From Escherichia phage KM02, in the sequence record PQ179042: a stretch of DNA of 40,673 nucleotides; one strand, 5' to 3'. Numbering within the stretch: the stretch's first letter is position 1; the number at the start of each line of letters is the position of its first letter. Of this stretch, positions 8,767 through 30,731 are shown piece by piece. The notes under the pieces were generated by a model. The model saw only the letters and a list, made by a program, of their open reading frames with translations. It searched no databases and was not told where the DNA came from. Position numbers and translations under genes: made by a program.

Positions 8767-9465
8767 ATGGCTAAAGAGCAACTGAAGACTTTCACCACTC
8801 CTGTAGCTGGTATCGTTGAGCCTTACGCATGGCTTAACAAAGCAGACACCAAGTTTAACGAGCGTGGTGAGCATAAGGTTAACCTGACTTTCAGTCTGGA
8901 TGACCCGAAGGTCCGTAAGATGATTGATGTATTACAGAAGATTCACGACGATGCGTATGCGAAAGCACTCGCAGACCACGAGAAGAACCCACCTCAGGTT
9001 CAGCGTGGCAAGAAGCCTATAGAGCCGCGTGAAGGCGACATGCCGTGGATTGCGAATGGTGACGGTACTGTTACCATGAAGTTTAAATGCTTTGCGTCTT
9101 ACCTGAAAGACGGCAAGTCAGAGCCTATCGTATTACGGTTCTACGACACCGATGCTAAACTCATCCGTGACGTCCCGAATATTGGCGCTGGGTCTAAGCT
9201 GAAGGTAAAGTTTAAAGTCCTGCCGTTCAAGTGGAACGCTGCGACTGGTGCAAGCGTTAAGCTCCAGCTTGAGTCCTGCCTTCTGGTAGAACTGAAGGAA
9301 TGGAAAGGTGATGGTACTGGTGGCGATGGTGGTTGGGGTGATGATGAAGACCTCGGTACTGGCTACAAAGCGTCAACAGATGGTGACTTCGGGTCTGATG
9401 ACTTCGGTGACGATGGTTCCGAAGGTGGTGACGACTCCAGCTCTGGTGGCGATTACGATTTTTGA
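8767..9465 (+). CDS. 2.5: Single-stranded DNA-binding protein
   Basis: 232 aa, identical length to T7 gp2.5; acidic C-terminal tail ending DYDF; internal GKKPIEPREGDMPW. Confidence 0.92.
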   Translation: MAKEQLKTFTTPVAGIVEPYAWLNKADTKFNERGEHKVNLTFSLDDPKVRKMIDVLQKIHDDAYAKALADHEKNPPQVQRGKKPIEPREGDMPWIANGDGTVTMKFKCFASYLKDGKSEPIVLRFYDTDAKLIRDVPNIGAGSKLKVKFKVLPFKWNAATGASVKLQLESCLLVELKEWKGDGTGGDGGWGDDEDLGTGYKASTDGDFGSDDFGDDGSEGGDDSSSGGDYDF

Positions 9466-9896
9466 AGAGACTAAACCGTGAGTCACTGCGGAGTAAGATA
9501 CTAGAAAATGTGACCAGAGAGAATTACTGCTGGATTTGGCAGAAGTCTTTCGGGTCACATGGATATGGTAATATAGGGACTGGGGGACAACGAAATGAGA
9601 CAGTACATAGGGTTTCATACGAAGTGTTCAATGGGACCATACCTGAAAAAATGCTGGTATTACATTCGTGTGACAACCGTAAGTGTTGCAACCCTGAGCA
9701 TTTACGGGTCGGAACATACAAGGAGAACCTCACGGATAGAGACACTAGGTCAAAGCGTGTGGTTGTTATGACTATGGATAAGGCTAGGGAGGCGAGAGCC
9801 TCTGGTCTTTCATGTACTGAACTAGCCACCAAATATGGCCTGTCTTATTCCTCAATGTTTAAGCTATTAAGAGGTGAGACATGGCGAGAAGTATGA
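9462..9896 (+). CDS. HNH homing endonuclease with C-terminal helix-turn-helix
   Basis: Motif YGNIGTGG...VHRVSYEVFNGTIPEKMLVLHSCDNRKCCNPEHL; sits between genes 2.5 and 3; TTG start with no clear SD. Confidence 0.75.
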   Translation: MKRLNRESLRSKILENVTRENYCWIWQKSFGSHGYGNIGTGGQRNETVHRVSYEVFNGTIPEKMLVLHSCDNRKCCNPEHLRVGTYKENLTDRDTRSKRVVVMTMDKAREARASGLSCTELATKYGLSYSSMFKLLRGETWREV

Positions 9897-13480: not shown

Positions 13481-15652
13481 ATGTTTGACCTTAAGAGTAT
13501 CTGGGGTTCTGACATCGAGACCGACGGTCTCCTTGATACAGTCTCCCAGTTTCACTGTGGGGTACTGATTAACGCCGAGTCGAATGAGACCCTTAAGTAT
13601 GGGGTAGCTCCGATGGTCGGTATCGTCGGGGGCTTCAAAGAGTATGTTCAGAAGGTGGAAGAGATTGCCGCATCACCTGATGGTATGCTGGTATACCACA
13701 ACGGTATCAACTACGACGTCCCTGCTATTGACAAGCTGAAACGTCTGTACTTTGGGAAACGCTTTAACTTCCCAAAACACAAGATGATTGATACCTTGGT
13801 GCTTGGGCGCTTGATGTATCCCAACATTAAGTTCTCAGACATGGGAGCAGTGAAAGCTGGTCGTCTGCCCCCTAAGATGATGGGACGCCAGTCTCTTGAG
13901 GCTTGGGGCTATCGTCTCGGTGAGATGAAGGGTGAGTACAAACACGATTACGTTGCCAAGTGCAAGGCCGAAGGTATCGAATATAAGGCTGGGGACGAAT
14001 GGTTGTTCCCGTCTCAGGAGATGCTAGACTATAACGTTCAAGACGTTGTGGTAACGCTGGCGTTGTTCAAGAAGTTCCTGACTGACAAGTATTACTTCCA
14101 GTCTGAACAGTTCGCTTTCGACCAGATTTATGCGTTGCGTCTGGAACATGATGCTGCGTGGACCTGTGCGAAGATGGAGCGTAACGGCTATCCGATGAAC
14201 ACCGAGATGGTCGAAGGCTTATATCGTGAACTCACCATCAAACGTGCAGAGTTGTTGGACAAGCTGCGTTCGACTTTCGGTAGCTGGTATGCACCAAATG
14301 GAGGCAAGGAGTTCTTCAAGCACCCACGGACAGGCAAGGACCTTCCGAAGTATCCGCGAGTCGTGTATCCTAAGGTCGGGTCAGTATTCAAGAAGCCGAA
14401 GAACAAAGCTCAACGCTTAGGTCTGGAGCCTTGCGAGTTCGACTCACGAGACACGATGGAAGGAGCACCGTTCACGCCAATCACTTACGTTGAGTTTAAT
14501 CCGGGAAGCGGAGACCACTTAGCGAAAGTCTTGATGGAGCGTGGTTGGGAGCCTGTTGACTTCACTGACACTGGGAAACCTGTAGTCGATGACGAGACGT
14601 TAGAACACGTTAAGCTACCAGACGCAGAGGCTCAGGCTTGCGTAGAGCTGGTCCGTGAGTATCTGGTAGTCCAGAAGCGCATCGGTCAGGCGGCTGAAGG
14701 TAAGAACGCATGGTTGAAACTTATAGGTCCAGACGGACGTATGCACGGTTCAATCAACCCATGCGGCGCAGTAACAGGACGTGCGACTCATAGTTCACCA
14801 AACATGGCTCAGGTCCCTGCTAACGGTGCTCCGTATGGTGAGATTTGCCGTGGTGCTTTCGGTGCAGCTTGGAACAAGACGGATAGTAAGCCAGACCCTT
14901 GGATTCAAGTGGGTGTGGATGCTTCAGGTCTTGAGCTTCGTTGTCTGGGGAACCGAGCTGCTCCGTTTGATGGTGGGGCCTATGCGAAGACTGTGGTAGA
15001 AGGTGACATCCACTGGGCCAACGCAGTCAACGCTGGGTTAGCACCTAACGTCCCACGCGACAAGTCGAGCCACGACCACGATGCTTTCCGTAACAACGCT
15101 AAGACGTTCATCTATGCGTTCCTGTATGGTGCAGGGGCCGCGAAGATTGGACTAATAGTTGGTGGTGGTAAGAAGGAAGGTGCTGCCCTGATGAAGAAAT
15201 TCATTGAGGGTACACCAGCTATCAAGGACCTCAGGGAAGCTGTGAATAATACGTTAATCTCAGACTCTAAGTGGGTGGATGGTGAGAATATCGTTAAGTG
15301 GAAACGCCGTTGGTTGCGTGGACTTGATGGTCGCCGTATCCACATCCGGTCGCCACACTCAGCACTGAACGCATTACTTCAAGGTGATGGCGCGGTAGTC
15401 TGTAAGCACTGGATGGTACTGACGGAGAAGAAACTTGAGGAAGCTGGCTACGGTAATGGCTGGGATGGTGACTTTGCGCTAATGGCTTGGATTCACGACG
15501 AATTGCAGATTGCGTGTCGTACTCAGGAGATTGCCGAAGAAGTCGTCCGTATTGCACAAGAAGCAATGCGTGAGGTAGGACGTTTTTATAACTTCAAGTG
15601 TGATCTTGATACGGAGGGTAAGATTGGACCAACGTGGAAAGAATGCCATTGA
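13481..15652 (+). CDS. 5: DNA polymerase (family A)
   Basis: Strong identity to T7 gp5 throughout (KFHCGV, HNG..YDVPA, QDVVVT, GRATHSSPNMAQVP, DASGLELRC, AKTFIYAFLYGAG, HDELQ); ATG 13481 with SD ggagga preferred over the track GTG 13445. Confidence 0.97.
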   Translation: MFDLKSIWGSDIETDGLLDTVSQFHCGVLINAESNETLKYGVAPMVGIVGGFKEYVQKVEEIAASPDGMLVYHNGINYDVPAIDKLKRLYFGKRFNFPKHKMIDTLVLGRLMYPNIKFSDMGAVKAGRLPPKMMGRQSLEAWGYRLGEMKGEYKHDYVAKCKAEGIEYKAGDEWLFPSQEMLDYNVQDVVVTLALFKKFLTDKYYFQSEQFAFDQIYALRLEHDAAWTCAKMERNGYPMNTEMVEGLYRELTIKRAELLDKLRSTFGSWYAPNGGKEFFKHPRTGKDLPKYPRVVYPKVGSVFKKPKNKAQRLGLEPCEFDSRDTMEGAPFTPITYVEFNPGSGDHLAKVLMERGWEPVDFTDTGKPVVDDETLEHVKLPDAEAQACVELVREYLVVQKRIGQAAEGKNAWLKLIGPDGRMHGSINPCGAVTGRATHSSPNMAQVPANGAPYGEICRGAFGAAWNKTDSKPDPWIQVGVDASGLELRCLGNRAAPFDGGAYAKTVVEGDIHWANAVNAGLAPNVPRDKSSHDHDAFRNNAKTFIYAFLYGAGAAKIGLIVGGGKKEGAALMKKFIEGTPAIKDLREAVNNTLISDSKWVDGENIVKWKRRWLRGLDGRRIHIRSPHSALNALLQGDGAVVCKHWMVLTEKKLEEAGYGNGWDGDFALMAWIHDELQIACRTQEIAEEVVRIAQEAMREVGRFYNFKCDLDTEGKIGPTWKECH

Positions 15653-15683
15653 CCCTCGAACCAAGACCTTGCGCTTCCACACA

Positions 15684-15977
15684 ATGCCTACTGGATGTAT
15701 CGTCTGCGTGTCCCACAAGAGGAACCAAGATGGATACTTCCGGTATTCTATGTGAAGCTACAGGAAGGGCAACAAGTTCGCCTTCATGTTTCACAGATGG
15801 GTGTGGGAACAGAAGCGCGGACCTATACCGGATGGCTATGAGATAGACCATTTGTGTTTGAATCGTGGGTGCTGTAACGTAGAACATCTACAATGTATTC
15901 CAAAGCGTGATCACGTCATCAAGACTAACCGTGAGCGCAAACTTATTAAGAAGGAGAAGACTAATGGCTATTACTAA
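15684..15977 (+). pseudogene. HNH homing endonuclease (T7 gene 5.3 position) interrupted by an in-frame TGA at 15753-15755
   Basis: Frame reads MPTGCIVCVSHKRNQDGYFRYSM-stop-SYRKGNKFAFMFHRWVWEQKRGPIPDGYEIDHLCLNRGCCNVEHL; HNH-like on both sides of the stop. Confidence 0.55.
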
Positions 15978-16248
15978 ACGTATTCGTGTAAGTTTCGACC
16001 TGAAGATGGTTGTCAACTCAAAGGAAGAAGAGACCATGTGTCGCCAACTGGCTGAGATGACTAAAGCCTACGCTGATGGCGAGAAGCTGGATGGACTTCA
16101 GTTGGCTATGGTCAAAGCAGCAATCGAGTCAGGACCTGAGTCTGCCCTCGAGATTGCCGTCAAGAAGGTCATCAAGGAGGAGCTGGTGGACGCCTTTGGT
16201 GATGACCAGTTCGGTGTGTCCAACCTGCAATTCGAGGTCAAGCAATGA
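15964..16248 (+). CDS. 5.5: gp5.5-like protein
   Basis: MAITKRIRVSFDL matches the T7 gp5.5 N-terminus MAMTKRFKVSFDV; SD aaggag; the track ORF 15907 is an upstream extension. Confidence 0.7.
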   Translation: MAITKRIRVSFDLKMVVNSKEEETMCRQLAEMTKAYADGEKLDGLQLAMVKAAIESGPESALEIAVKKVIKEELVDAFGDDQFGVSNLQFEVKQ

Positions 16249-16454
16249 GTGAATACTTACGGGTCCTAGCGGCCCTTAAGTCCTGCCCGAAGACCTTCCA
16301 GTCTAACTATGTGCGCAACAACGCTGCACTTGTGGCTGAGGCTGCGAGTCGTGGACATCTAAGCTGCCTGTCTATGGATGGGCGTAACAACGGTGCGTGG
16401 GAAATTACCGCTGCTGGCACCAAGTTCCTGAACCAACACGGAGGCTGTCTATGA
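16245..16454 (+). CDS. 5.7: gp5.7-like protein
   Basis: 69 aa; MSEYLRVLAALKSCPKTFQSNYVRNNAALVAEAASRGH is near-identical to T7 gp5.7 as recalled. Confidence 0.85.
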   Translation: MSEYLRVLAALKSCPKTFQSNYVRNNAALVAEAASRGHLSCLSMDGRNNGAWEITAAGTKFLNQHGGCL

Positions 16455-16900
16455 AGATACCTGAAAGTCTGAAAGAGCTGGTCCTTGAAATGGCTGAATT
16501 CGATAAGGAGCACCGCAAGTACGGTGAGTTCTACGCATCTTGGTCATTCACCCTGACTGAGAAGGACGTTGAGGCCTACGCAGAGTCTCCCGCTGAGGCT
16601 TATGAGTGGCATCCGTTCATCGGACTGACCATCGTAGCTAGCGGTATGTGGGATGACGGATACGGCTCAGAGGTAAACGACTGGGACGTGTACCGCCAAG
16701 TTGAGAAGGAGACCGAAATGTCTTCCAACTTCTGGAGCCTGATGTCACACCTCAACTCAGAGGATAATGACATGGCCCATGAGTTCGCCAGTAAATGGCT
16801 GAAGCCTGAGGTGACTCTGGAACGTATTGAGGAGCCTAAAGTTCCCTTGATGCCATATGCAGTCGCTATGGCTACAGGAGGTCTGGATGATGGGTGCTGA
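16451..16900 (+). CDS. Strongly acidic hypothetical protein at the gp5.9 position
   Basis: 149 aa from ATG 16451 (SD acggagg); about 30 D/E versus about 11 K/R; no similarity to T7 gp5.9. Confidence 0.5.
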   Translation: MKIPESLKELVLEMAEFDKEHRKYGEFYASWSFTLTEKDVEAYAESPAEAYEWHPFIGLTIVASGMWDDGYGSEVNDWDVYRQVEKETEMSSNFWSLMSHLNSEDNDMAHEFASKWLKPEVTLERIEEPKVPLMPYAVAMATGGLDDGC

Positions 16901-18908: not shown

Positions 18909-19149
18909 ATCAATCAGTAAGGCATTCAAGAAAGTGGTGAAAAGTACGCTAGGGACCGTTGGTCTTGGCTCTGATGACGCACCTAAGGTTGTTGAGGCTC
19001 AGACCCCAGCAGCACCAGTGGAAGTACCGAACGACCAAGTTGAAGATGTGGATACCGAAGCGACTGCATCTGACGAGAAGAAAGTGAAGAGTTCAGGTAA
19101 GCGTAGCCTTCAGGTCTCTCGTACCTCTGGTGGCGGTATTTCTATATGA
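18901..19149 (+). CDS. 7.3: gp7.3-like virion/tail protein
   Basis: MGK...KK N-terminus and C-terminal SGKRSLQVSRTSGGGISI match T7 gp7.3 (KKSLSVARSSGGGINI); GTG start. Confidence 0.7.
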   Translation: MGKSISKAFKKVVKSTLGTVGLGSDDAPKVVEAQTPAAPVEVPNDQVEDVDTEATASDEKKVKSSGKRSLQVSRTSGGGISI

Positions 19150-19538
19150 CACCATGTCATGAATGGGGTGGATACTGCACCAAGGATGGCTACGGTGAAA
19201 CTAGGGTAGATGGGCGCAAGGTTCGCGTTCATCGCCTAGAGTGGACGAAACACTACGGACCTATTCCGCATGACAAAGTGGTTCGCCACAAGTGTGACAA
19301 CCCTAAGTGTTTTAATATTGAACACCTAGAGTTAGGAACAACACAGGATAACACGGCTGACAGAGTGTCTCGTGGTCGAAGCGCCAAAGGAGAGGATAAC
19401 GGTAACGCCGTCCTCACTATTGATATTGTTAATGAGGTTCGCGAAAGTAGCATGTCTCAGCGCAAAATAGCGAAGACCTATGGAGTGTCACAGTCTACCG
19501 TATCTAAAATCAAACGCAATGTAACGTGGAGGTCATAA
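19146..19538 (+). CDS. HNH homing endonuclease with C-terminal helix-turn-helix (T7 gene 7.7 position)
   Basis: KDGYGETRVDGRKVRVHRLEW...GPIPHDKVVRHKCDNPKCFNIEHL plus HTH IAKTYGVSQSTVSKIKR; 130 aa. Confidence 0.8.
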   Translation: MTPCHEWGGYCTKDGYGETRVDGRKVRVHRLEWTKHYGPIPHDKVVRHKCDNPKCFNIEHLELGTTQDNTADRVSRGRSAKGEDNGNAVLTIDIVNEVRESSMSQRKIAKTYGVSQSTVSKIKRNVTWRS

Positions 19539-23550: not shown

Positions 23551-24117
23551 ATGGCTCAATACATTCCACTGAATGCTAACGATGACTTAGACGCTATCAA
23601 CGATATGTTAGCTGCTATCGGTGAACCATCAGTCCTACAGCTTGACGAAGGTAACGCTGACGTCTCGAATGCTCAACGTATATTACATCGTGTCAATCGT
23701 CAGGTCCAAGCTAAAGGATGGAACTTTAACATTAATGAAGCTGCTATCCTGACACCTGATGTCCAAGACAACAGGATTCGATTCTTGCCGTCATACCTTC
23801 GTGTAATGACTGCCGGTGCCACCAGCTACTACAGCAACATGGGTGGATACCTGTACGACCTGTCCACTCAGTCAACCACTTTCACCGACCCTATAACGGT
23901 AGAGCTTGTTGAGATGAAACCGTTCTCTGAGATGCCTGTGGTATTCAGGGATTACATCGTTACCAAGGCCAGCCGTGAGTTCAACGCTAAGTTCTTCGGT
24001 AGCCCAGAGTCTGAACTGTACCTTCGTGAGCAGGAAGCAGAACTCTATCAGCAGGTCATGGAATACGAGATGGACACTGGTCGCTACAACATGATGTCAG
24101 ACATCGGGAGGGACTAA
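23551..24117 (+). CDS. 11: Tail tubular protein A
   Basis: DAINDMLAAIGEP, GWNFNI, MEYEMDTGRYNM match T7 gp11; ATG 23551 with SD aggaggga preferred over the track start 23521. Confidence 0.9.
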   Translation: MAQYIPLNANDDLDAINDMLAAIGEPSVLQLDEGNADVSNAQRILHRVNRQVQAKGWNFNINEAAILTPDVQDNRIRFLPSYLRVMTAGATSYYSNMGGYLYDLSTQSTTFTDPITVELVEMKPFSEMPVVFRDYIVTKASREFNAKFFGSPESELYLREQEAELYQQVMEYEMDTGRYNMMSDIGRD

Positions 24118-24344
24118 TGGCTAGTCACAACCTGAAGATTCACCGCCAACACTTTGGTCCGGTACAACTAGGTCTAAAGACAGCAGAGCTGAGACTTAAC
24201 GACCGTGACTTTAAGGTTGGCGACTGGCTTATCCTGAATGAGTGGAACAACGGGTATACTGGACAACAGGTAGCACGTAAGGTTGTCCACATTGCTGACG
24301 TTGGGGACATCGCTGAAGGATACGTCCTAATGAGTATGATTTAA
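24117..24344 (+). CDS. Small DUF3850/ASCH-like (PUA-fold) protein
   Basis: HNLKIHRQHFGPVQLGLKTAELRLNDRDFKVGDWLILNEW..GYTG fits the recalled DUF3850/ASCH pattern; SD gggaggga; no counterpart between T7 genes 11 and 12. Confidence 0.5.
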   Translation: MASHNLKIHRQHFGPVQLGLKTAELRLNDRDFKVGDWLILNEWNNGYTGQQVARKVVHIADVGDIAEGYVLMSMI

Positions 24345-24355
24345 GTGGAGGTGAT

Positions 24356-24796
24356 ATGATACACGACAAGTGCGGTCTGGAGTTTAGGGAGGGAGCAAAA
24401 GGCTCATGCTTGAACTGTAGACGTATAGCCAAGCTGGTAAAGAAAGGACTATCAGTGGAGGAAGCTAGATTAGTTGAGCCGAGAGGAAAGAAGGTCATTA
24501 AAGATAAAGACTGGAAGAAGAACAGTCAGCTTAAATATCTTTATGGCATCAACCTAGAGAGGTTTAATAAAATGCGAAAGGAGGCAAACTATCAGTGCCA
24601 AATCTGTGGGTGTCATGAGAGCGAGAGTACAGGAGGGACATTATGTGTTGACCACAACCACGAAACTGGTGAGGTTAGAGGTCTTCTCTGTAGGCACTGC
24701 AATAAGTCTCTAGGAGGTTTCAAGGACTCCCGTGAGATTCTACTAAACGCTGCTAAGTATCTGGAGGACACATGCCGCTTATCACACAAAGCATAA
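24356..24796 (+). CDS. Endonuclease VII-like nuclease
   Basis: CQICGCHES...CVDHNHETGEVRGLLCRHCNKSLG matches the T4 endonuclease VII family core; SD ggaggtga. Confidence 0.75.
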   Translation: MIHDKCGLEFREGAKGSCLNCRRIAKLVKKGLSVEEARLVEPRGKKVIKDKDWKKNSQLKYLYGINLERFNKMRKEANYQCQICGCHESESTGGTLCVDHNHETGEVRGLLCRHCNKSLGGFKDSREILLNAAKYLEDTCRLSHKA

Positions 24797-27129
24797 AAAA
24801 TCTTAAAGGTGGCATTAGCCAGCAGCCTGATATACTGAGGTTCTCGGACCAAGGCGAGAAACAGGTAAACTGCTGGTCATCAGAGAGTGATGGCCTACAG
24901 AAGCGTCCACCTACAGTATTCAAGCGACGTCTTAACATCGACGTTGGGAGCAACCCTAAGTTCCACCTGATTAACCGTGATGAGCAGGAGCAGTATTACA
25001 TCGTGTTCAACGGGTCCAACATTCAGGTAGTCGACTTGAGCGGTAATCAATACTCAGTTTCAGGTGCGGTAGACTACGTTAAGTCGTCCAACCCGCGAGA
25101 TAACATCCGTGTCGTTACAGTTGCAGACTATACGTTCATCGTGAACCGTAAGGTTGTCGTTAACGGTGGAAGCGAGAAGTCACACTCTGGTTATAATCGT
25201 AAAGCTCGTGCTTTAATTAACCTGCGTGGTGGACAGTATGGTCGCACCCTTAAGGTAGGAATCAACGGAGGCGTTAAGGTTTCGCATAAGCTGCCAGCAG
25301 GTAATGATGCCGAGAATGACCCACCTAAGGTGGATGCTCAGGCCATCGGTGCAGCTCTGAGAGACCTTCTTGTTGCTGCTTACCCTACCTTCACGTTCGA
25401 CCTTGGGTCTGGCTTCCTGTTAATCACTGCCCCTTCAGGGACTGACATTAACTCAGTGGAGACGGAGGATGGCTACGCTAACCAGCTAATCAGCCCAGTC
25501 CTAGACACGGTGCAAACAATCTCTAAGTTGCCTCTTGCGGCTCCAAATGGGTACATCATTAAGATTCAAGGTGAGACCAACAGTAGCGCCGATGAATATT
25601 ACGTGATGTATGACTCCAATACTAAGACGTGGAAGGAGACAGTAGAGCCGGGAGTTGTCACTGGGTTCGATAACACCACAATGCCACATGCTCTGGTGAG
25701 ACAATCTGACGGCTCCTTTGAGTTTAAGACTCTGGACTGGTCTAAGCGGGGTGCTGGCAATGATGACACAAACCCTATGCCTAGCTTCGTGGATGCTACG
25801 ATTAACGATGTGTTCTTCTACAGGAACAGGCTAGGGTTCTTGTCCGGAGAGAACGTAATCATGAGCCGTTCAGCCAGCTACTTTGCGTTCTTCCCTAAGA
25901 GTGTGGCGACATTGAGTGATGATGATCCTATTGACGTAGCTGTAAGTCACCCTAGAATCTCAATACTTAAGTATGCCGTTCCGTTTAGCGAGCAGCTACT
26001 ACTTTGGTCAGATGAGGTGCAGTTCGTGATGACAAGCTCAGGGGTCCTTACCTCGAAGTCTATCCAGCTTGATGTGGGCTCAGAGTTTGCCTTAGGTGAT
26101 AACGCCAGACCGTTCGCTGTAGGACGCTCAGTCTTCTTCTCAGCGCCTCGTGGGTCATTCACCAGTATTAAGCGATACTTCGCTGTAGCAGATGTGTCTG
26201 ACGTGAAGGATGCCGATGATACCACTAGTCACGTACTGTCCTATATCCCTAACGGGGTGTTTGACATTCAAGGTACAGGGACTGAGAACTACATCTGCGT
26301 CAACTCTACAGGTGCATACAACCGAATCTACATCTACAAGTTCTTGTTTAAGGACGGCGTACAACTTCAAGCCTCTTGGTCGCACTGGGAGTTTCCTAAA
26401 GCTGATAAGATTCTGGCGTCTGCGTCGATTGGCTCTACCATGTTCATTGTTCGTCAGCACCAAGGGGGTGTGGACATTGAGCACCTTAAGTTCATCAAGG
26501 AGGCAACCGACTTTCCATTAGAGCCGTATAGACTCCACGTTGACTCCAAGGTGTCTATGGTAATACCAAATGGCTCATACAACGCTGACACCTATAAGAC
26601 TACGGTTGACATTGGTGCTGCTTATGGGGGCAACGCTCCGTCTCCCGGTCGGTACTATCTGATTGACAGTCAGGGTGCCTATGTGGACCTTGGTGAACTT
26701 ACCGACATCTCTACTGTGATTACCCTCAACGGCGATTGGTCGGGACGTACAGTGTTCATCGGACGGTCTTATCTGATGTCCTACAAGTTCTCACGGTTCC
26801 TGATTAAGATTGAAGACGATAGTGGCACTCAGTCTGAAGACACTGGTCGTCTACAGCTTCGTCGGGCTTGGGTCAACTACAAGGACACTGGCGCTCTGAG
26901 ACTCATTGTCAGAAACGGTGAGCGGGAGTTCGTGAATACCTTCAACGGGTACACCCTTGGTCAGCAAACCATCGGTACTACAAACATTGGTGACGGGCAG
27001 TATCGATTCGCTATGAATGGTAACGCATTAACCACGAGTCTAACCTTAGAGTCCGACTATCCTACCCCAGTGTCCATCGTTGGGTGTGGCTGGGAGGCAT
27101 CATACGCTAAGAAAGCTCGTTCAGTCTAA
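24772..27129 (+). CDS. 12: Tail tubular protein B
   Basis: SQSIKNLKGGISQQPDILR, LQKRPP, HLINRDE, VTVADYTFIVNR, RAWVNY, GCGWE match T7 gp12. Confidence 0.95.
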   Translation: MPLITQSIKNLKGGISQQPDILRFSDQGEKQVNCWSSESDGLQKRPPTVFKRRLNIDVGSNPKFHLINRDEQEQYYIVFNGSNIQVVDLSGNQYSVSGAVDYVKSSNPRDNIRVVTVADYTFIVNRKVVVNGGSEKSHSGYNRKARALINLRGGQYGRTLKVGINGGVKVSHKLPAGNDAENDPPKVDAQAIGAALRDLLVAAYPTFTFDLGSGFLLITAPSGTDINSVETEDGYANQLISPVLDTVQTISKLPLAAPNGYIIKIQGETNSSADEYYVMYDSNTKTWKETVEPGVVTGFDNTTMPHALVRQSDGSFEFKTLDWSKRGAGNDDTNPMPSFVDATINDVFFYRNRLGFLSGENVIMSRSASYFAFFPKSVATLSDDDPIDVAVSHPRISILKYAVPFSEQLLLWSDEVQFVMTSSGVLTSKSIQLDVGSEFALGDNARPFAVGRSVFFSAPRGSFTSIKRYFAVADVSDVKDADDTTSHVLSYIPNGVFDIQGTGTENYICVNSTGAYNRIYIYKFLFKDGVQLQASWSHWEFPKADKILASASIGSTMFIVRQHQGGVDIEHLKFIKEATDFPLEPYRLHVDSKVSMVIPNGSYNADTYKTTVDIGAAYGGNAPSPGRYYLIDSQGAYVDLGELTDISTVITLNGDWSGRTVFIGRSYLMSYKFSRFLIKIEDDSGTQSEDTGRLQLRRAWVNYKDTGALRLIVRNGEREFVNTFNGYTLGQQTIGTTNIGDGQYRFAMNGNALTTSLTLESDYPTPVSIVGCGWEASYAKKARSV

Positions 27130-27136
27130 CTTATTG

Positions 27137-27186
27137 AAGGGCCTATAGATTTACCTTAACTATCACTATAGGGACTATAGGCCCTT
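27137..27186 (+). repeat. Perfect 12-bp inverted repeat (aagggcctatag / ctataggccctt) bracketing the phi13 promoter
   Basis: Arms at 27137-27148 and 27175-27186 with a 26-nt spacer that contains the promoter core. Confidence 0.7.
27154..27176 (+). promoter_or_regulatory. Phage-RNAP promoter (phi13 analogue)
   Basis: cttaactatcactataggga at 27155-27174. Confidence 0.7.
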
Positions 27187-27205
27187 AAGGTTATAAGGAG
27201 ACTTT

Positions 27206-27667
27206 ATGTATATTCGCAAGGCTACAGATGTAGACGTTTGGTACGCTGCTGCACAACTTACAGATGACGACTTAGAGGAGTGTAAAGCCAACTATGGGAC
27301 CATTGAAGGTCTCACTGAAAGGTTACAAGCACACCTAACGTCTTCATCTGTGGTTTTGACTAACGCTCTTGGGGAGATATATGCCTATGGGGGCAACCAA
27401 GGTGACAACGTTTGGTTCCTGACTACCAGAATGACCGAGCGTCTCCAGCCTAAAGGTAAGCGAGAGTTCCGTGAGAGAATCATGGAGTATCGTGACAAGA
27501 TGCTGGAGGACTATCCGGTACTATGGAACTACGTCTGGGAAGGCAATACGTCTCACATCAGGTTTCTCAAGTCAATAGGCGCTAAGTTCCACGACGATAA
27601 GTGGACCAGAAGTCCAGTGACTGGAGAAGTATTTATTCTATTCACAATCACTAAGGAGGACACGTGA
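27206..27667 (+). CDS. 13: Internal virion protein gp13-like (by position)
   Basis: 153-aa ORF with SD aaggag between genes 12 and 14. Confidence 0.65.
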   Translation: MYIRKATDVDVWYAAAQLTDDDLEECKANYGTIEGLTERLQAHLTSSSVVLTNALGEIYAYGGNQGDNVWFLTTRMTERLQPKGKREFRERIMEYRDKMLEDYPVLWNYVWEGNTSHIRFLKSIGAKFHDDKWTRSPVTGEVFILFTITKEDT

Positions 27668-27846
27668 CTAAGGTCTGTACCGTCTGTAAAATTGAAAAGC
27701 CACTAGAAGCGTTCTCCCCACGGAAAGACTCTAAGTGTGGTGTACGCGCTGCCTGTAAGCTGACCAGTAGAAACTACCACTCTACATGCGAAGATTTCTA
27801 TGGTAAGGCTGCTGAGTATCTGGCTACAAGCCGGAAGGGGGATTAG
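27664..27846 (+). CDS. Small CxxC zinc-ribbon protein
   Basis: MTKVCTVCKIEKPLEAFSPRKDSKCGVRAACK resembles zinc-ribbon N-terminal modules of phage homing endonucleases; 60 aa. Confidence 0.4.
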   Translation: MTKVCTVCKIEKPLEAFSPRKDSKCGVRAACKLTSRNYHSTCEDFYGKAAEYLATSRKGD

Positions 27847-27882
27847 GAAATTTGCGAACCAATTTCAATCGGTTTAGGTATT

Positions 27883-28437
27883 ATGTCTGTAGCTGGTGCC
27901 ACTATGTCCGCATCCCAACAGGCCAAGGCTGAAGGTGCAGCAATTGATGCTCAGAACCGACAGTCTCAGGAAATGGTTAAGCAGATGAACTACTCTGACG
28001 CCAACCTGAAGATGCAGGAGCGCGACCTGAAGGAGCAGCAGATGGTTGAACTGACAGAGACCACGCTAAACGGTATCCGTAATCAGGGTATGGTCCGAGC
28101 TGCGGTGGCTGAGTCCGGTCTGGAAGGTAACTCTATGGACAGGATTGAACGTCAGGTAGAAGGAGATACAGTCAAGGAGCGAGCAGGGATTACCGAAAAT
28201 TACAACCGAGACTATGCGGCTATCTTCGGGAACCGTATCGCCAACATTGAGAACACAAAGTCTGCTATCCGTGGTCAAGGTAAAATCATCAAGACCAGCC
28301 CACTGGCTCATGCACTTAATGTTGCTACCGCAGGGATGCAAGGTTACGCCGCTGGTAAGTCAATCTCTGGAGCGTCCAGCTCTGGTGGTGCTGAACCAAT
28401 TAGTGCTGCTAAAGGCACACCTACAGGTCATAGCTAA
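27883..28437 (+). CDS. 14: Internal virion protein A
   Basis: MVRAAVAESGLEGNSMDRIERQVEG...ENYNRDYAAIF matches T7 gp14 (IRAAIGESMLEGSSMDRIKRVTEG...ENYRRDYQAIF). Confidence 0.8.
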   Translation: MSVAGATMSASQQAKAEGAAIDAQNRQSQEMVKQMNYSDANLKMQERDLKEQQMVELTETTLNGIRNQGMVRAAVAESGLEGNSMDRIERQVEGDTVKERAGITENYNRDYAAIFGNRIANIENTKSAIRGQGKIIKTSPLAHALNVATAGMQGYAAGKSISGASSSGGAEPISAAKGTPTGHS

Positions 28438-28448
28438 GAGGAGGACTA

Positions 28449-30731
28449 ATGGCTAGTAATATTGAATCAGCTCTTGCTAATCGGACTATGGGTCGTGGCA
28501 GAGCTCCTGGTAAAACTATCGCCGTCAACTATCAAGCAGCCAACGTTCAGGCTCCGACTGGGGACTCCGGGCTGGCTCGTGCATTAACTAACTTCGTTGA
28601 GTCTGGGACAGGATTGTACAAGCAGTTCAAGGACGAGGAGAAGACCAGAGCTGACGAGCGGTCTAACGAGATTATCCGTAAGTTGACACCTCAGCAGAGA
28701 CGTGAGGCTATCCAGAACGGTACATTGCTGTATCAGGATGACCCTTACGCTATGGAAGCACTTCGAGTCAAGACTGGTCGTAATGCTGCCTTTGCTGTAG
28801 ACGACGAGATTAACGTTAAGATTCAGAACGGTGAGTTCCGTACACGTCAGGACATGGAAGAGCATCGCCACCAGCGACTTCAGGACGCCGCTAAGTCCTA
28901 TGCTGAAGAGGCGGGTATTAACCCTACAGACGAGTTCTTCCAGCGTGGGTTCAACGATAACATCACAGACCGCAACATCGCTATCTATGGGTCTTTCAAT
29001 AAGTATTTCAGCAAGCAGTCTGAAGAGACAGCAATGTTGAACACTCGTATTGAGATGAACTCATTCCTGAACGATGGTGACTTGATGCGTTCACCTGAGT
29101 CTGGCAAGACATTCATGGCCTACCTTCGTGATGGACTGACTACTGCTGCTATCCCCTCGGACCAGCGAGCGCGGGAGGTTATTACCCAGACGGTACGTGA
29201 CGCAATCCAGAAGTCAGGAGGCTCAAACTTCCTACAGCAAGTACGAGGCGAGCGAATCGCCCTTAACGGCGTGGATGCTACAGTCGAAGAGATTGTAGGA
29301 CCTGACGTCTTCAATGCTGCTATGGTTGAGGCCCAAGGTACTGAGTATAAACTGGTGGCTAAGTATCAGGAAGACTTGTCGTTAGGCGTTCAGTCTGCGA
29401 TTCTTCAGGATGACCCAACCATCGGTCTGGCCCAGATTCAGAAACTCAAGGAGCAGAACAACCTGCTTCAGCCGGGTGAAGAACTAACGCCTCAGCGTCA
29501 GATGCTTATTAATGCCGAATCCAGCTTACTGGAAGCGGTAAAGCGTAAGTCCGCTGAACAGGCTAAGGAGAACACTAAGTTAATCCAGACCCAGAATAAG
29601 CAACTTGTCATTGACCAAGTTTATCAGCGACGTCTTTCTGGGGACAACGTGTCCACCAACTATGAGGACCTTCCGATCTCTGAAGCTACAGGAGAGTTCA
29701 AGCGTTCAGACATGAACAACTATGCGTCTGCCAAGCTACAGCAGATTGACCAGATGGACATCCCTGAGGCTGCTAAAGACGCACAGAAGGTGGCATTGTT
29801 GAGGGCTGACACTAACAATGGTCCGTTCCGTAATGCCTTCCAGACGCTGACTCAGGACGCTGCTGGTGAGTGGCAAGCTGCGGTCATCCGTGGGCAGTAC
29901 GACCCAGACAAGATGCAACGCTTCGAATCTCTTCGTCGTGCCTACACTCAGGACCATTCAAGTTTTGCTGCTCTGTATCCTGACCAAGCTCAGTTGTTCT
30001 CTACGTTCGACCAGATGGACAAGATGGGTCTGGACCCTCAGACGATGATTGAAGCTGATAAGCAAGCTGCAAGTCAAAGCCGTGAGATGCGCATGGAGTC
30101 AGACAAGGCGTGGCAGGAGTTGAAGAACGACTCCAAGAACACCCAGTTGTCTCGCCTCCCGACGTCTCTGGACGCAAGTGCTCGTAAGGTCTGGGACTCA
30201 TGGTACTATCGTACAGGTAACGCTGACGCTGCAACTCAGCAGACTCAACGCTGGCTGAATGAGAACACCGTAACGTTCCAGTCTGAAGGTTCTGATGGTA
30301 AGTCAATCGGCATGGTGTCCAAGCACCAGCTTATGGTCGGGGATAACCCAGAGTCGTGGCAGGTGGGTCGAGACATTATAGACACCGCTCGTCAGCAGCT
30401 CATTAAGGCCAACCCTTGGGTAGTGAACTCTCAGTTGTCCGTTGTTGAACAGAACGGCTCTATCTTCCTCCAAGACGCTACGGGGACTATTCGTATTCGC
30501 TACGATAAAGAACTTGTAGGTAAACTCTACAGCGAACAACAGCAGAAGGCACAAGATGCCGCATACGCTCAGGCAGAACGTGACGCTAACAAGCGAGCGC
30601 GTATCGTCGGGACTAAAGCTGCTGGTGACAAACGTCGAGCTGACCGAGAGGCCAACATCGAGAAGCGCGGTGGGATGTACAATGACGTCTCACTGGAGGG
30701 TATCTCAAACACCTTAATCGGTAAGGAGTAA
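28449..30731 (+). CDS. 15: Internal virion protein C
   Basis: ADERSNEIIRKLTPQQRREAIQNGTLLYQDDPYAMEALRVKTGRNAA is near-identical to T7 gp15. Confidence 0.93.
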   Translation: MASNIESALANRTMGRGRAPGKTIAVNYQAANVQAPTGDSGLARALTNFVESGTGLYKQFKDEEKTRADERSNEIIRKLTPQQRREAIQNGTLLYQDDPYAMEALRVKTGRNAAFAVDDEINVKIQNGEFRTRQDMEEHRHQRLQDAAKSYAEEAGINPTDEFFQRGFNDNITDRNIAIYGSFNKYFSKQSEETAMLNTRIEMNSFLNDGDLMRSPESGKTFMAYLRDGLTTAAIPSDQRAREVITQTVRDAIQKSGGSNFLQQVRGERIALNGVDATVEEIVGPDVFNAAMVEAQGTEYKLVAKYQEDLSLGVQSAILQDDPTIGLAQIQKLKEQNNLLQPGEELTPQRQMLINAESSLLEAVKRKSAEQAKENTKLIQTQNKQLVIDQVYQRRLSGDNVSTNYEDLPISEATGEFKRSDMNNYASAKLQQIDQMDIPEAAKDAQKVALLRADTNNGPFRNAFQTLTQDAAGEWQAAVIRGQYDPDKMQRFESLRRAYTQDHSSFAALYPDQAQLFSTFDQMDKMGLDPQTMIEADKQAASQSREMRMESDKAWQELKNDSKNTQLSRLPTSLDASARKVWDSWYYRTGNADAATQQTQRWLNENTVTFQSEGSDGKSIGMVSKHQLMVGDNPESWQVGRDIIDTARQQLIKANPWVVNSQLSVVEQNGSIFLQDATGTIRIRYDKELVGKLYSEQQQKAQDAAYAQAERDANKRARIVGTKAAGDKRRADREANIEKRGGMYNDVSLEGISNTLIGKE

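Follow-up and report, generated by a model that had tools for sequence, protein, structure and literature searches.

An internally deleted allele of gene 13.5, an endonuclease VII-type gene and most likely a homing endonuclease gene, in the Kayfunavirus Escherichia phage KM02

Homing endonuclease genes follow a cycle of invasion, degeneration and loss (reviewed in PMC3229294; see also PMC13405050). That a protein with an endonuclease VII (Endo VII) motif can be a homing endonuclease is known from F-CphI of cyanophage S-PM2, the founding homing endonuclease with this catalytic motif (PMC6083498). The motif is represented as CX2-4C ... DHDH ... CX2C-N, and in the T4 enzyme D40 and N62 bind the metal and H41 and H43 are catalytic (PMC6083498). 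A related protein, Hpy99I, is built from a pair of beta4-alpha2 repeats, in each of which two CxxC motifs hold a structural zinc, and its second repeat contains a beta-beta-alpha-metal active site with Asp148, His149 and Asn165 (PMC2699513). In the genus Kayfunavirus, gp13.5 is listed as an 'extra' gene of Hafnia phage Ca, and the same paper documents by experiment a mixed population, with and without a deletion of 397 bp in a different homing endonuclease gene (PMC8861465).

The window, that is, the whole stretch of 40,673 nucleotides analysed here (Escherichia phage KM02, record PQ179042), comprises the complete genome of a T7-type phage in the genus Kayfunavirus (K1F-like). Both of its halves are ~93-94% identical to many Kayfunavirus records, and no identical record was found. 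The locus considered lies between genes 13 and 14 and has the following features:

27154..27176, + strand: promoter phi13 for the phage RNA polymerase (class III), whose 23 bases, CCTTAACTATCACTATAGGGACT, are identical to the annotated 'promoter phi13' of EcoDS1
27206..27667, + strand: gene 13, encoding the internal virion/scaffold protein gp13 (Pfam Phage_T7_Gp13, E 2.3e-36)
27664..27846, + strand: remnant ORF (gene 13.5 allele), 60 aa, with a GTG start and a TAG stop
27883..28437, + strand: gene 14, encoding the internal virion protein gp14, called from the first ATG (Pfam T7_gp14, E 3e-43)

The original prediction placed a 60-aa ORF at 27664-27846 between genes 13 and 14; these coordinates are exact, and Pfam confirms the flanking products as gp13 and gp14. 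The protein sequence of the ORF is MTKVCTVCKIEKPLEAFSPRKDSKCGVRAACKLTSRNYHSTCEDFYGKAAEYLATSRKGD. Its Shine-Dalgarno sequence, AAGGAGG, is located at 27653-27659 within the last codons of gene 13, and in the tetranucleotide GTGA (27664-27667) the TGA stop of gene 13 overlaps the GTG start of the remnant, whose own stop is only 36 bp from the gene 14 ATG. Promoter phi13 would drive the late transcript that contains gene 13, the 13.5 remnant and gene 14. With the Shine-Dalgarno sequence in gene 13 and the GTGA overlap both kept, the remnant is placed for transcription from phi13 and for translation together with the late genes, and is probably still expressed.

When positions 27100-28500 were compared by megablast with 50,697 phage records, 220 records matched. 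The best four, PSK1, ZCEC02, HC13 and Esher2, are 96-98% identical and cover the query fully, but the matched span in them is 1605 bp, compared with 1401 bp in the window. Exactly between genes 13 and 14, all four contain a 387-bp CDS annotated as 'endonuclease VII' or hypothetical, and in a four-way DNA alignment the window and PSK1 are collinear apart from a single, clean gap of 204 bp in this nuclease gene. The proposal that the ORF is the remnant of a degraded mobile nuclease is supported by these comparisons: an intact 128-aa Endonuclease_7 gene occupies the identical position in the nearest relatives. In Salmonella phage KE05 the site is empty, and the start of gene 14 abuts the stop of gene 13. 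The PSK1 product has 128 residues, and the remnant is composed of its residues 1-33 joined to its residues 102-128, as follows:

27664..27762, + strand: 5' segment, parental codons 1-33 (PSK1 tblastn piece, residues 1-33, 94% identity, E 8e-17)
27757..27762, + strand: deletion junction, the sole surviving AAGCTG (6-bp junction ambiguity, deletion length 204)
27763..27846, + strand: 3' segment, parental codons 102-128 and the TAG (DNA alignment with PSK1)

Of the N-terminal zinc ribbon, the 5' segment carries C31 as well as the first CxxC knuckle (C5, C8), and the 3' segment is the C-terminal helix region beyond the catalytic core. The tblastn search of the window with the PSK1 protein gave, besides the first piece, a second one at 27757-27843 that corresponds to residues 100-128 (93% identity, E 3e-13), and nothing further at the locus. 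The possibility of a chance ORF is ruled out by this homology, in which the PSK1 nuclease is found as two collinear pieces. The original prediction had also pointed to the downstream frames as a place for remnants of nuclease motifs, but tblastn detected none in any frame, and just the 36 bp mentioned above are left before the gene 14 ATG.

The insertion site is the same as that of the 128-aa gp13.5, 'endonuclease VII', of PSK1, ZCEC02, HC13, Esher2, U8, pO91, CY1, Penshu1 and ST21, and the start that overlaps the gene 13 stop, the 3' end, the stop codon and the downstream ATT (see below) are all as in that group. The 60 residues of the remnant are 95% identical to PSK1 gp13.5; the difference is that residues 34-101 are missing. 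The intact gene has two copies of the hexamer AAGCTG, at its positions 94 and 298 (204 bp apart), both of them codons for K-L (in 'CKLC' and 'LKLT'), and the 204-bp deletion fuses codon 33 to codon 102 in frame. We infer that slipped-strand or microhomology-mediated recombination during phage replication made the deletion between these in-frame hexamers, because an exact 6-bp junction homology is the expected product of such a process. Deletion mutants of T7 reportedly arise, in the main, between short direct repeats, as Studier and co-workers in 1979 and Pierce, Kong and Masker in 1991 are said to have observed.

Intact gp13.5 matches Pfam Endonuclease_7 (PF02945), with E-values of 1.3e-16 for PSK1 and 2.2e-28 for EcoDS1, and on this sequence basis the parent is assigned to the endonuclease VII branch (PF02945, beta-beta-alpha-metal or His-Me finger); some Kayfunavirus and other T7-type phages carry such a gene at their 13/14 junction. 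In a PDB search with the parent, residues 3-105 resembled Hpy99I (3fc3) and residues 59-121 resembled T4 endonuclease VII (1en7, 2qnc). These are its best relatives of solved structure, although their biological roles differ from that of the parent: Hpy99I is a restriction enzyme and T4 endonuclease VII is a junction resolvase. The two Cys4-zinc repeats of Hpy99I are comparable to the N-terminal ribbon and the catalytic module of the parent. By alignment, with the ligand and catalytic roles as given in PMC2699513 and PMC6083498, parental zinc site 1 was mapped to C5, C8, C31 and C34, zinc site 2 to C66, C69, C94 and C97, and the catalytic residues to D81, H82, H84 and N98, which correspond to D40, H41, H43 and N62 of T4. 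The deleted residues 34-101 include C34, the whole of zinc site 2, and D81, H82, H84 and N98. Because C34, zinc site 2 and every catalytic residue are deleted, the remnant cannot be a nuclease. In comparison with Hpy99I, it keeps just the first hairpin of repeat 1 and the tail after repeat 2.

The cysteines of the remnant are residues 5, 8, 25, 31 and 42, which gives the pattern C-x2-C ... C-x5-C-K. In the original prediction the C-x2-C was right, but the second spacing was given as C-x6-C-K, whereas residues 25 and 31 are separated by five residues. The second zinc knuckle, C31-K-L-C34 in the parent, has become C31-K-L-T34, and C25 aligns with a non-ligand position of Hpy99I. With the fourth Cys of the ribbon deleted, the description as a stand-alone zinc ribbon was overstated.

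In Pfam, the 60-aa remnant has no match to PF02945 or to HNH and only a sub-threshold match to Stc1, in agreement with the predicted lack of a catalytic domain. In NCBIfam, the remnant has no match, and the parent has only a sub-threshold retron-HNH match. Membership in the GIY-YIG or classical HNH families (PF01844/PF13392) was considered and rejected, there being no such Pfam match in either the remnant or the parent; the parent belongs with PF02945 rather than with the HNH and GIY-YIG endonucleases that the original prediction had named for alignment. The PHROG matches of the remnant are to endonuclease VII, 'endonuclease', HNH and Lar-like families (E 5e-6 to 1e-3; 6e-6 to 1e-3 for the endonuclease VII and HNH families), all of them in the Cys-rich N-terminal part only. 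For example, the match to 'HNH endonuclease' (E 3e-4) covers only the zinc-ribbon region, and the match to the Lar-like restriction alleviation protein (phrog_5558, E 5e-6) is local, covering profile positions 65-115 of 130 and the Cys-rich region only. The sequence of the remnant is explained better by positional orthology to gp13.5 than by the phrog_5558 match. None of the Endonuclease VII family features that were tested is present in the remnant, namely the profile match, the catalytic D-H-x-H and N, and the flanking zinc site; the features of orthology to gene 13.5 of the Studiervirinae, namely the location between genes 13 and 14, the start overlap and the collinear sequence, are present. 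By position and sequence, the remnant is regarded as a deletion allele (pseudogene-like) of gene 13.5.

We consider it very probable that the remnant is a dead, internally deleted gene 13.5, and that its parent is an optional free-standing endonuclease VII-type gene, most likely a homing endonuclease gene. When 60 of the 220 matching records were sampled at even intervals, the majority had an empty spacing of ~1184-1224 bp (K1F is among these), and a minority were occupied, with a spacing of ~1600 bp. By tblastn, the PSK1-type gene was found in 11 records and the EcoDS1-type gene in 8 records (at least 88% identity); less closely related alleles of gene 13.5 are present in T7-type phages of Klebsiella, Yersinia (gene 13.5 of phiYeO3-12) and Serratia. 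The gene is therefore polymorphic for presence and absence among close relatives: empty, occupied and decayed sites all occur among the 220 matching records. At least three alleles (PSK1, EcoDS1 and Ro45lw types), with 38-40% protein identity, occupy one site whose flanks are ~85-94% identical. The gene 13.5 of EcoDS1 and phiYeO3-12 (133 aa) and the Ro45lw allele (136 aa) have the same 13/14 insertion site as the PSK1 type and the same two modules, an N-terminal CxxC...CxxC ribbon followed by the Endonuclease_7 domain, but only ~38-40% protein identity to it.

Since the phage already has a junction resolvase of its own, T7 endonuclease I (Pfam Phage_endo_I, E 2e-76), gene 13.5 is not needed in that role. 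F-CphI and the parental gene have in common the motif CX2-4C ... DH.H ... CX2C-N and a free-standing position between conserved phage genes. They differ in that the activity and target of F-CphI have been demonstrated, whereas gp13.5 is known from its sequence, and the remnant lacks the whole motif. The homing nature of gp13.5 is thus suggested by its distribution and by family analogy with F-CphI; in the literature, we found no report of cleavage of the empty allele by gp13.5 or of its over-inheritance in mixed infection. The identity between the window and PSK1 is 97-98% over 27001-29000, compared with 85-97% in most other 500-bp bins, and similar peaks occur elsewhere in the mosaic genome. 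An identity island that might be a footprint of co-conversion is present around the site, though it is not unique in such a genome. Three further free-standing nuclease genes lie elsewhere in the window, and PSK1 has none of them at the equivalent positions.

When six intact PSK1/Penshu1-type alleles were compared pairwise, all pairs that differ by more than a few substitutions gave a dN/dS of 0.04-0.16, and dS reached ~2; one close pair, PSK1/U8, is an exception, with no synonymous and five non-synonymous changes. Intact gp13.5 is under purifying selection, and functional in its carriers on that timescale. In comparison with PSK1, the remnant has one synonymous and three non-synonymous substitutions (dN/dS ~0.9), and the corresponding counts between the window and PSK1 are 5 synonymous to 2 non-synonymous in gene 13 and 8 to 6 in gene 14. 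Two of the changes in the remnant, S29A and R35S, are at positions invariant in the six intact alleles, and D46Y is at a position that is otherwise D or E only. These substitutions are suggestive of relaxed constraint, although four changes are too few for significance.

A search with the 60-aa protein in a collection of ~5.8 billion clusters returned two proteins only: an identical one and a 101-aa deletion variant. The identical protein is encoded on a single 40,528-bp Logan contig from run SRR33209174, which matches the window at 100% identity across the 6183 bp that were compared and is thus the same phage. The exact deletion junction was not found in the phage collection, in IMG/VR or in the JGI metagenome contigs. 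The allele of the window is a singleton, seen in one phage; the deletion could stem from laboratory propagation, and would be real all the same.

Other phages contain other products of decay of this gene. In P0002/L005, which comes from another sample, a PSK1-type gene has an 81-bp in-frame deletion that removes residues 12-38 and leaves 101 aa, so that P0002, in the opposite way to the window remnant, has lost the ribbon and kept the catalytic domain. In Esher6 and Esher7, a 24-codon ORF, MTKVCTVCKIEKAAKYLADSRKGD, corresponds to a Penshu1/ST21-type gene from which 312 bp have been removed in frame between GAGAAG hexamers; this deletion, like that in the window, is thus between 6-bp in-frame repeats. 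In ZG49, the 3' end of gene 13 and the 5' half of the nuclease gene are lost, and the allele of ST21, ST1 and ST3 is full-length with Cys94 replaced by Arg in zinc site 2. The products in Esher6/7, P0002 and ZG49 are independent events, because their end points and allele backgrounds differ. They share with the window the locus and the parental gene family, and in each the 3' end with the ribosome-binding site, the TAG and the ATT is kept. A scan of IMG/VR for the conserved 3' junction returned the ZG49 genome only. The 13/14 site shows all stages of the homing endonuclease cycle, and in this succession of invasion, degeneration and loss the window remnant would represent the degeneration phase.

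The three internal deletions (81, 204 and 312 bp) are all in frame. Selection for in-frame deletions (3/3, nominal p = 1/27) was considered as the reason for this and rejected: of the 19 hexamers that are repeated in the PSK1 gene, 16 have an in-frame spacing, so that microhomology deletions are mechanically biased to in-frame products, and out-of-frame ribosomes would stop at 27804/27813 or 27875. At the 5' end, the internal-deletion remnants keep the start with its overlap with the stop of gene 13, and at the 3' end they keep 45 nt or more. A remnant would persist since a deletion would be tolerated only inside the gene, because gene 13.5 overlaps the stop of gene 13 at one end (5') and includes the ribosome-binding site of the essential gene 14 at the other (3'). 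Two features at the 3' end are relevant to the start of gene 14:

27833..27842, + strand: Shine-Dalgarno-like GGAAGGGGGA, in the last nuclease codons (R-K-G-D), 7 nt upstream of the ATT
27850..27852, + strand: ATT at the ancestral position of the gene 14 ATG, in frame with the remnant TAG and two codons downstream of it

The Shine-Dalgarno-like sequence is kept in all PSK1/Penshu1-type alleles and remnants, and in Ro45lw it is a perfect AAGGAGG. At the gene 14 start position, the sequence is ATGTGCGAACCA in the empty site of KE05 and in EcoDS1, and ATTTGCGAACCA in the window and in all carriers of this nuclease type. The 3' end reads GGAAGGGGGA-TTAG-GAA-ATT-TGC-GAA-CCA in the window and in every PSK1/Penshu1-type carrier, and GAAGGAGGA-TTAG-AAA-ATT-TGC in Ro45lw, and the gene 14 start of KE05 and EcoDS1 reads ATG-TGC-GAA-CCA. 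The EcoDS1 type thus keeps and overlaps the gene 14 ATG, whereas the PSK1 and Ro45lw types have ATT. The nuclease TAG lies in the gene 14 frame, and the ten codons from the ATT to the first ATG (27883) are open, with variation that is only synonymous or among I, V, L and M. In the carriers, gp14 would either begin at AUU (or by reinitiation) or be 11 residues shorter; the Pfam T7_gp14 match begins at profile position 11, which fits a gp14 shorter by 11 residues. It is conceivable, although in our view improbable, that the PSK1/Penshu1/Ro45lw-type nuclease gene captured the translation start of the essential gene 14 and is hence hard to lose.

Three other explanations of the 60-aa ORF have to be weighed against simple decay. 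According to one, which is compatible with a nuclease origin, the remnant is kept as a translated leader ORF for gene 14, acting by termination-reinitiation or by AUU initiation. The nuclease gene would then have displaced the initiation region of gene 14, with the ATG changed to ATT and the Shine-Dalgarno sequence shifted into the last nuclease codons, so that gp14 would be made only with the help of the 13.5 sequence and its ribosomes, and the ORF would have a function today as RNA or as a unit of translation. This would account for the last 45 nt or more being kept by the PSK1-, Penshu1- and Ro45lw-type alleles and by all four decay products, a stretch that consists of GAAGG(G/A)GGA, TAG, one codon and then the in-frame ATT-TGC-GAA-CCA. 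It would also account for the open reading of the ten codons up to the ATG, with their synonymous or I/V/L/M variation, for the three internal deletions all being in frame, and for a Pfam match from profile position 11 if gp14 starts at the ATG. However, a deletion that took away the ribosome-binding site of gene 14 would in any case kill the phage, so that retention of the 3' end needs no special mechanism, and the variation in the ten codons could have come by recombination from phages in which they are coding. In addition, the in-frame bias is mechanical, given the hexamer spacing described above (16/19), frameshifts need not be lethal, with out-of-frame ribosomes stopping at the positions already listed, and the ZG49 fragment has no obvious in-frame start. 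On balance, we regard a leader function as unlikely.

The original prediction offered as its alternative a small DNA-binding protein, and a functional zinc- or DNA-binding mini-protein could be a small regulator or could, for example, sit on the recognition site of the nuclease and so guard the genome against related nucleases. A Cys4 module that contacts DNA forms the N-terminal repeat of the related Hpy99I (PMC2699513), the frame, the start, the stop, a good ribosome-binding site and four cysteines in the N-terminal half (C5, C8, C25, C31) are kept, and the best PHROG E-value (5e-6) is to the 'Lar-like restriction alleviation protein' family. Yet the fourth zinc ligand, C34, is deleted and C25 is at a non-ligand position, the ~5.8 billion clusters contain no family of similar size but only the ORF itself, and none of the phage, IMG/VR and JGI metagenome collections has the junction. 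The few substitutions are mostly non-synonymous, with S29A and R35S at invariant positions and D46Y at a D/E-only one; other phages have a still smaller remnant of 24 codons; and an AlphaFold2 single-sequence model of the 60 aa, itself weak evidence, is unstructured except for one helix (pLDDT 45). The suggestion of a DNA-binding role thus fared poorly, and we consider such a mini-protein very unlikely. The 60-aa product, inactive as a nuclease, is probably without function. The least probable explanation, to which we give hardly any credence, is that the gene of the phage is intact and the apparent deletion an artefact of assembly or sequencing. The allele does come from a single phage or sample, but the Logan assembly of SRR33209174 has the same junction within the identical 6183 bp, assemblers do not usually err by collapsing 204 bp between 6-bp repeats, comparable deletions exist in other, independently sequenced phages, and a Kayfunavirus population with and without the 397-bp deletion in a homing endonuclease gene has been documented experimentally (PMC8861465). 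The reading that we prefer remains that of a dead, internally deleted gene 13.5.

For annotation, the 'hypothetical protein' at this position is a pseudogene-like relic of gene 13.5, and should be called neither a nuclease nor a zinc-finger regulator. Taken alone, the remnant matters little, being an ordinary stage of decay, newly observed, in a mobile gene of a known kind. The Kayfunavirus 13/14 junction as a whole, on the other hand, offers a compact natural series over the whole life cycle of a homing endonuclease gene: an empty site, three divergent intact alleles, a point-mutated allele, deletions of 81, 204 and 312 bp, and a 5'-truncated gene. The two exact 6-bp junctions in this series show a route by which T7-type phages shed such genes. 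In addition, the conserved change from ATG to ATT at the gene 14 start is a hint that the insertion rewired the expression of the neighbouring essential gene. If gp14 is indeed made from the AUU or by reinitiation coupled to 13.5, the 60- and 24-codon remnants would be obligatory leader ORFs and the nuclease gene could decay only from the inside, which would amount to a kind of genetic addiction for a homing endonuclease gene.

The 60-codon gene 13.5 remnant of KM02 has smaller or otherwise altered counterparts in other phages, located at the following positions of the loci (L-numbers) that were compared with the window.

L013 662-736: unannotated 24-codon ORF, MTKVCTVCKIEKAAKYLADSRKGD, in Escherichia phage Esher7 (PQ593108.1)
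L005 111-416: protein P0002 of 101 aa, a variant of the PSK1-type nuclease, on a contig of Logan ERR15093933
L011 ~700-940: C-terminal nuclease fragment of gene 13.5 in Escherichia phage ZG49 (KX669227.5)
L010 401-787: full-length gene 13.5 allele with Cys94 replaced by Arg in Salmonella phage ST21

The 24-codon ORF, whose sequence is identical in Esher6 and Esher7, is a gene 13.5 remnant even smaller than that of the window; it arose by a 312-bp in-frame deletion with GAGAAG repeats at its ends. In P0002, an 81-bp in-frame deletion has removed residues 12-38, so that the N-terminal zinc ribbon is gone and the catalytic domain is retained; exact homology at this junction amounts to just 1-2 nt, and an offset AGCCAC repeat adjoins it. 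In ZG49, a deletion has cost gene 13 its final ~35 codons and gene 13.5 its 5' half; gp13 is truncated, and the surviving C-terminal fragment (VCAIC...DHCH...CHTCN...) follows a TGA in the same frame. The Cys94 to Arg replacement in ST21 affects the catalytic domain's structural zinc site. The nuclease has probably been inactivated, and the annotation still gives its ORF as intact. Records of ST1 and ST3 have the same identity to PSK1 gp13.5 as ST21, the replacement itself having been read in ST21.

The start of gene 14 was compared between window 27833-27885 and loci L001, L006-L011, L013 and L015. In all phages with a PSK1-, Penshu1- or Ro45lw-type 13.5 allele or remnant, ATT replaces the ancestral gene 14 start ATG.

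27850-27852: ATT at the ancestral gene 14 start, in frame with the nuclease TAG and two codons past it

A strong Shine-Dalgarno-like sequence, GAAGG(G/A)GGA, lies within the last codons of the nuclease, 7 nt 5' of the ATT. In these carriers, no stop interrupts the ten codons from the ATT to the first ATG (27883), and these codons vary only synonymously or among I, V, L and M. Such phages may initiate gp14 at AUU or make a protein shortened by 11 aa.

Elsewhere in the window, the following regions were compared with PSK1.

9462-9896, +: HNH_3 gene between genes 2.5 and 3 (Pfam E 1e-13)
15649-16896: interval of ~1.25 kb between the DNA polymerase and exonuclease genes, not aligning with PSK1
19146-19538, +: HNH_3 and helix-turn-helix gene directly 5' of the portal gene (Pfam E 3e-17)
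24117-24344, +: DUF3850/ASCH-domain ORF of 75 aa (Pfam E 4e-19)
24356-24796, +: intact 146-aa gene with an Endonuclease_7 domain (Pfam E 2e-20)

Both HNH_3 genes are free-standing nuclease genes and are missing from PSK1 at the matching positions, where they appear as alignment gaps. The polymerase-exonuclease interval is ~0.7 kb in PSK1, and several small ORFs of the window interval, such as 15907-16248 and 16397-16900, had no Pfam match. The DUF3850/ASCH ORF, whose PSK1 equivalent is annotated as 'RNA-binding protein', lies immediately 3' of gene 11 and 5' of the 146-aa gene, which is flanked by genes 11 and 12, overlapping the start of the latter. Opposite window 24346-24874, PSK1 has ~240 bp, located where its permuted record ends, and the two do not align; on this basis PSK1 appears to lack the 146-aa gene. 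The catalytic core of the encoded protein is ~40% identical to that of PSK1 gp13.5, and the gene is likely another free-standing homing-type nuclease.
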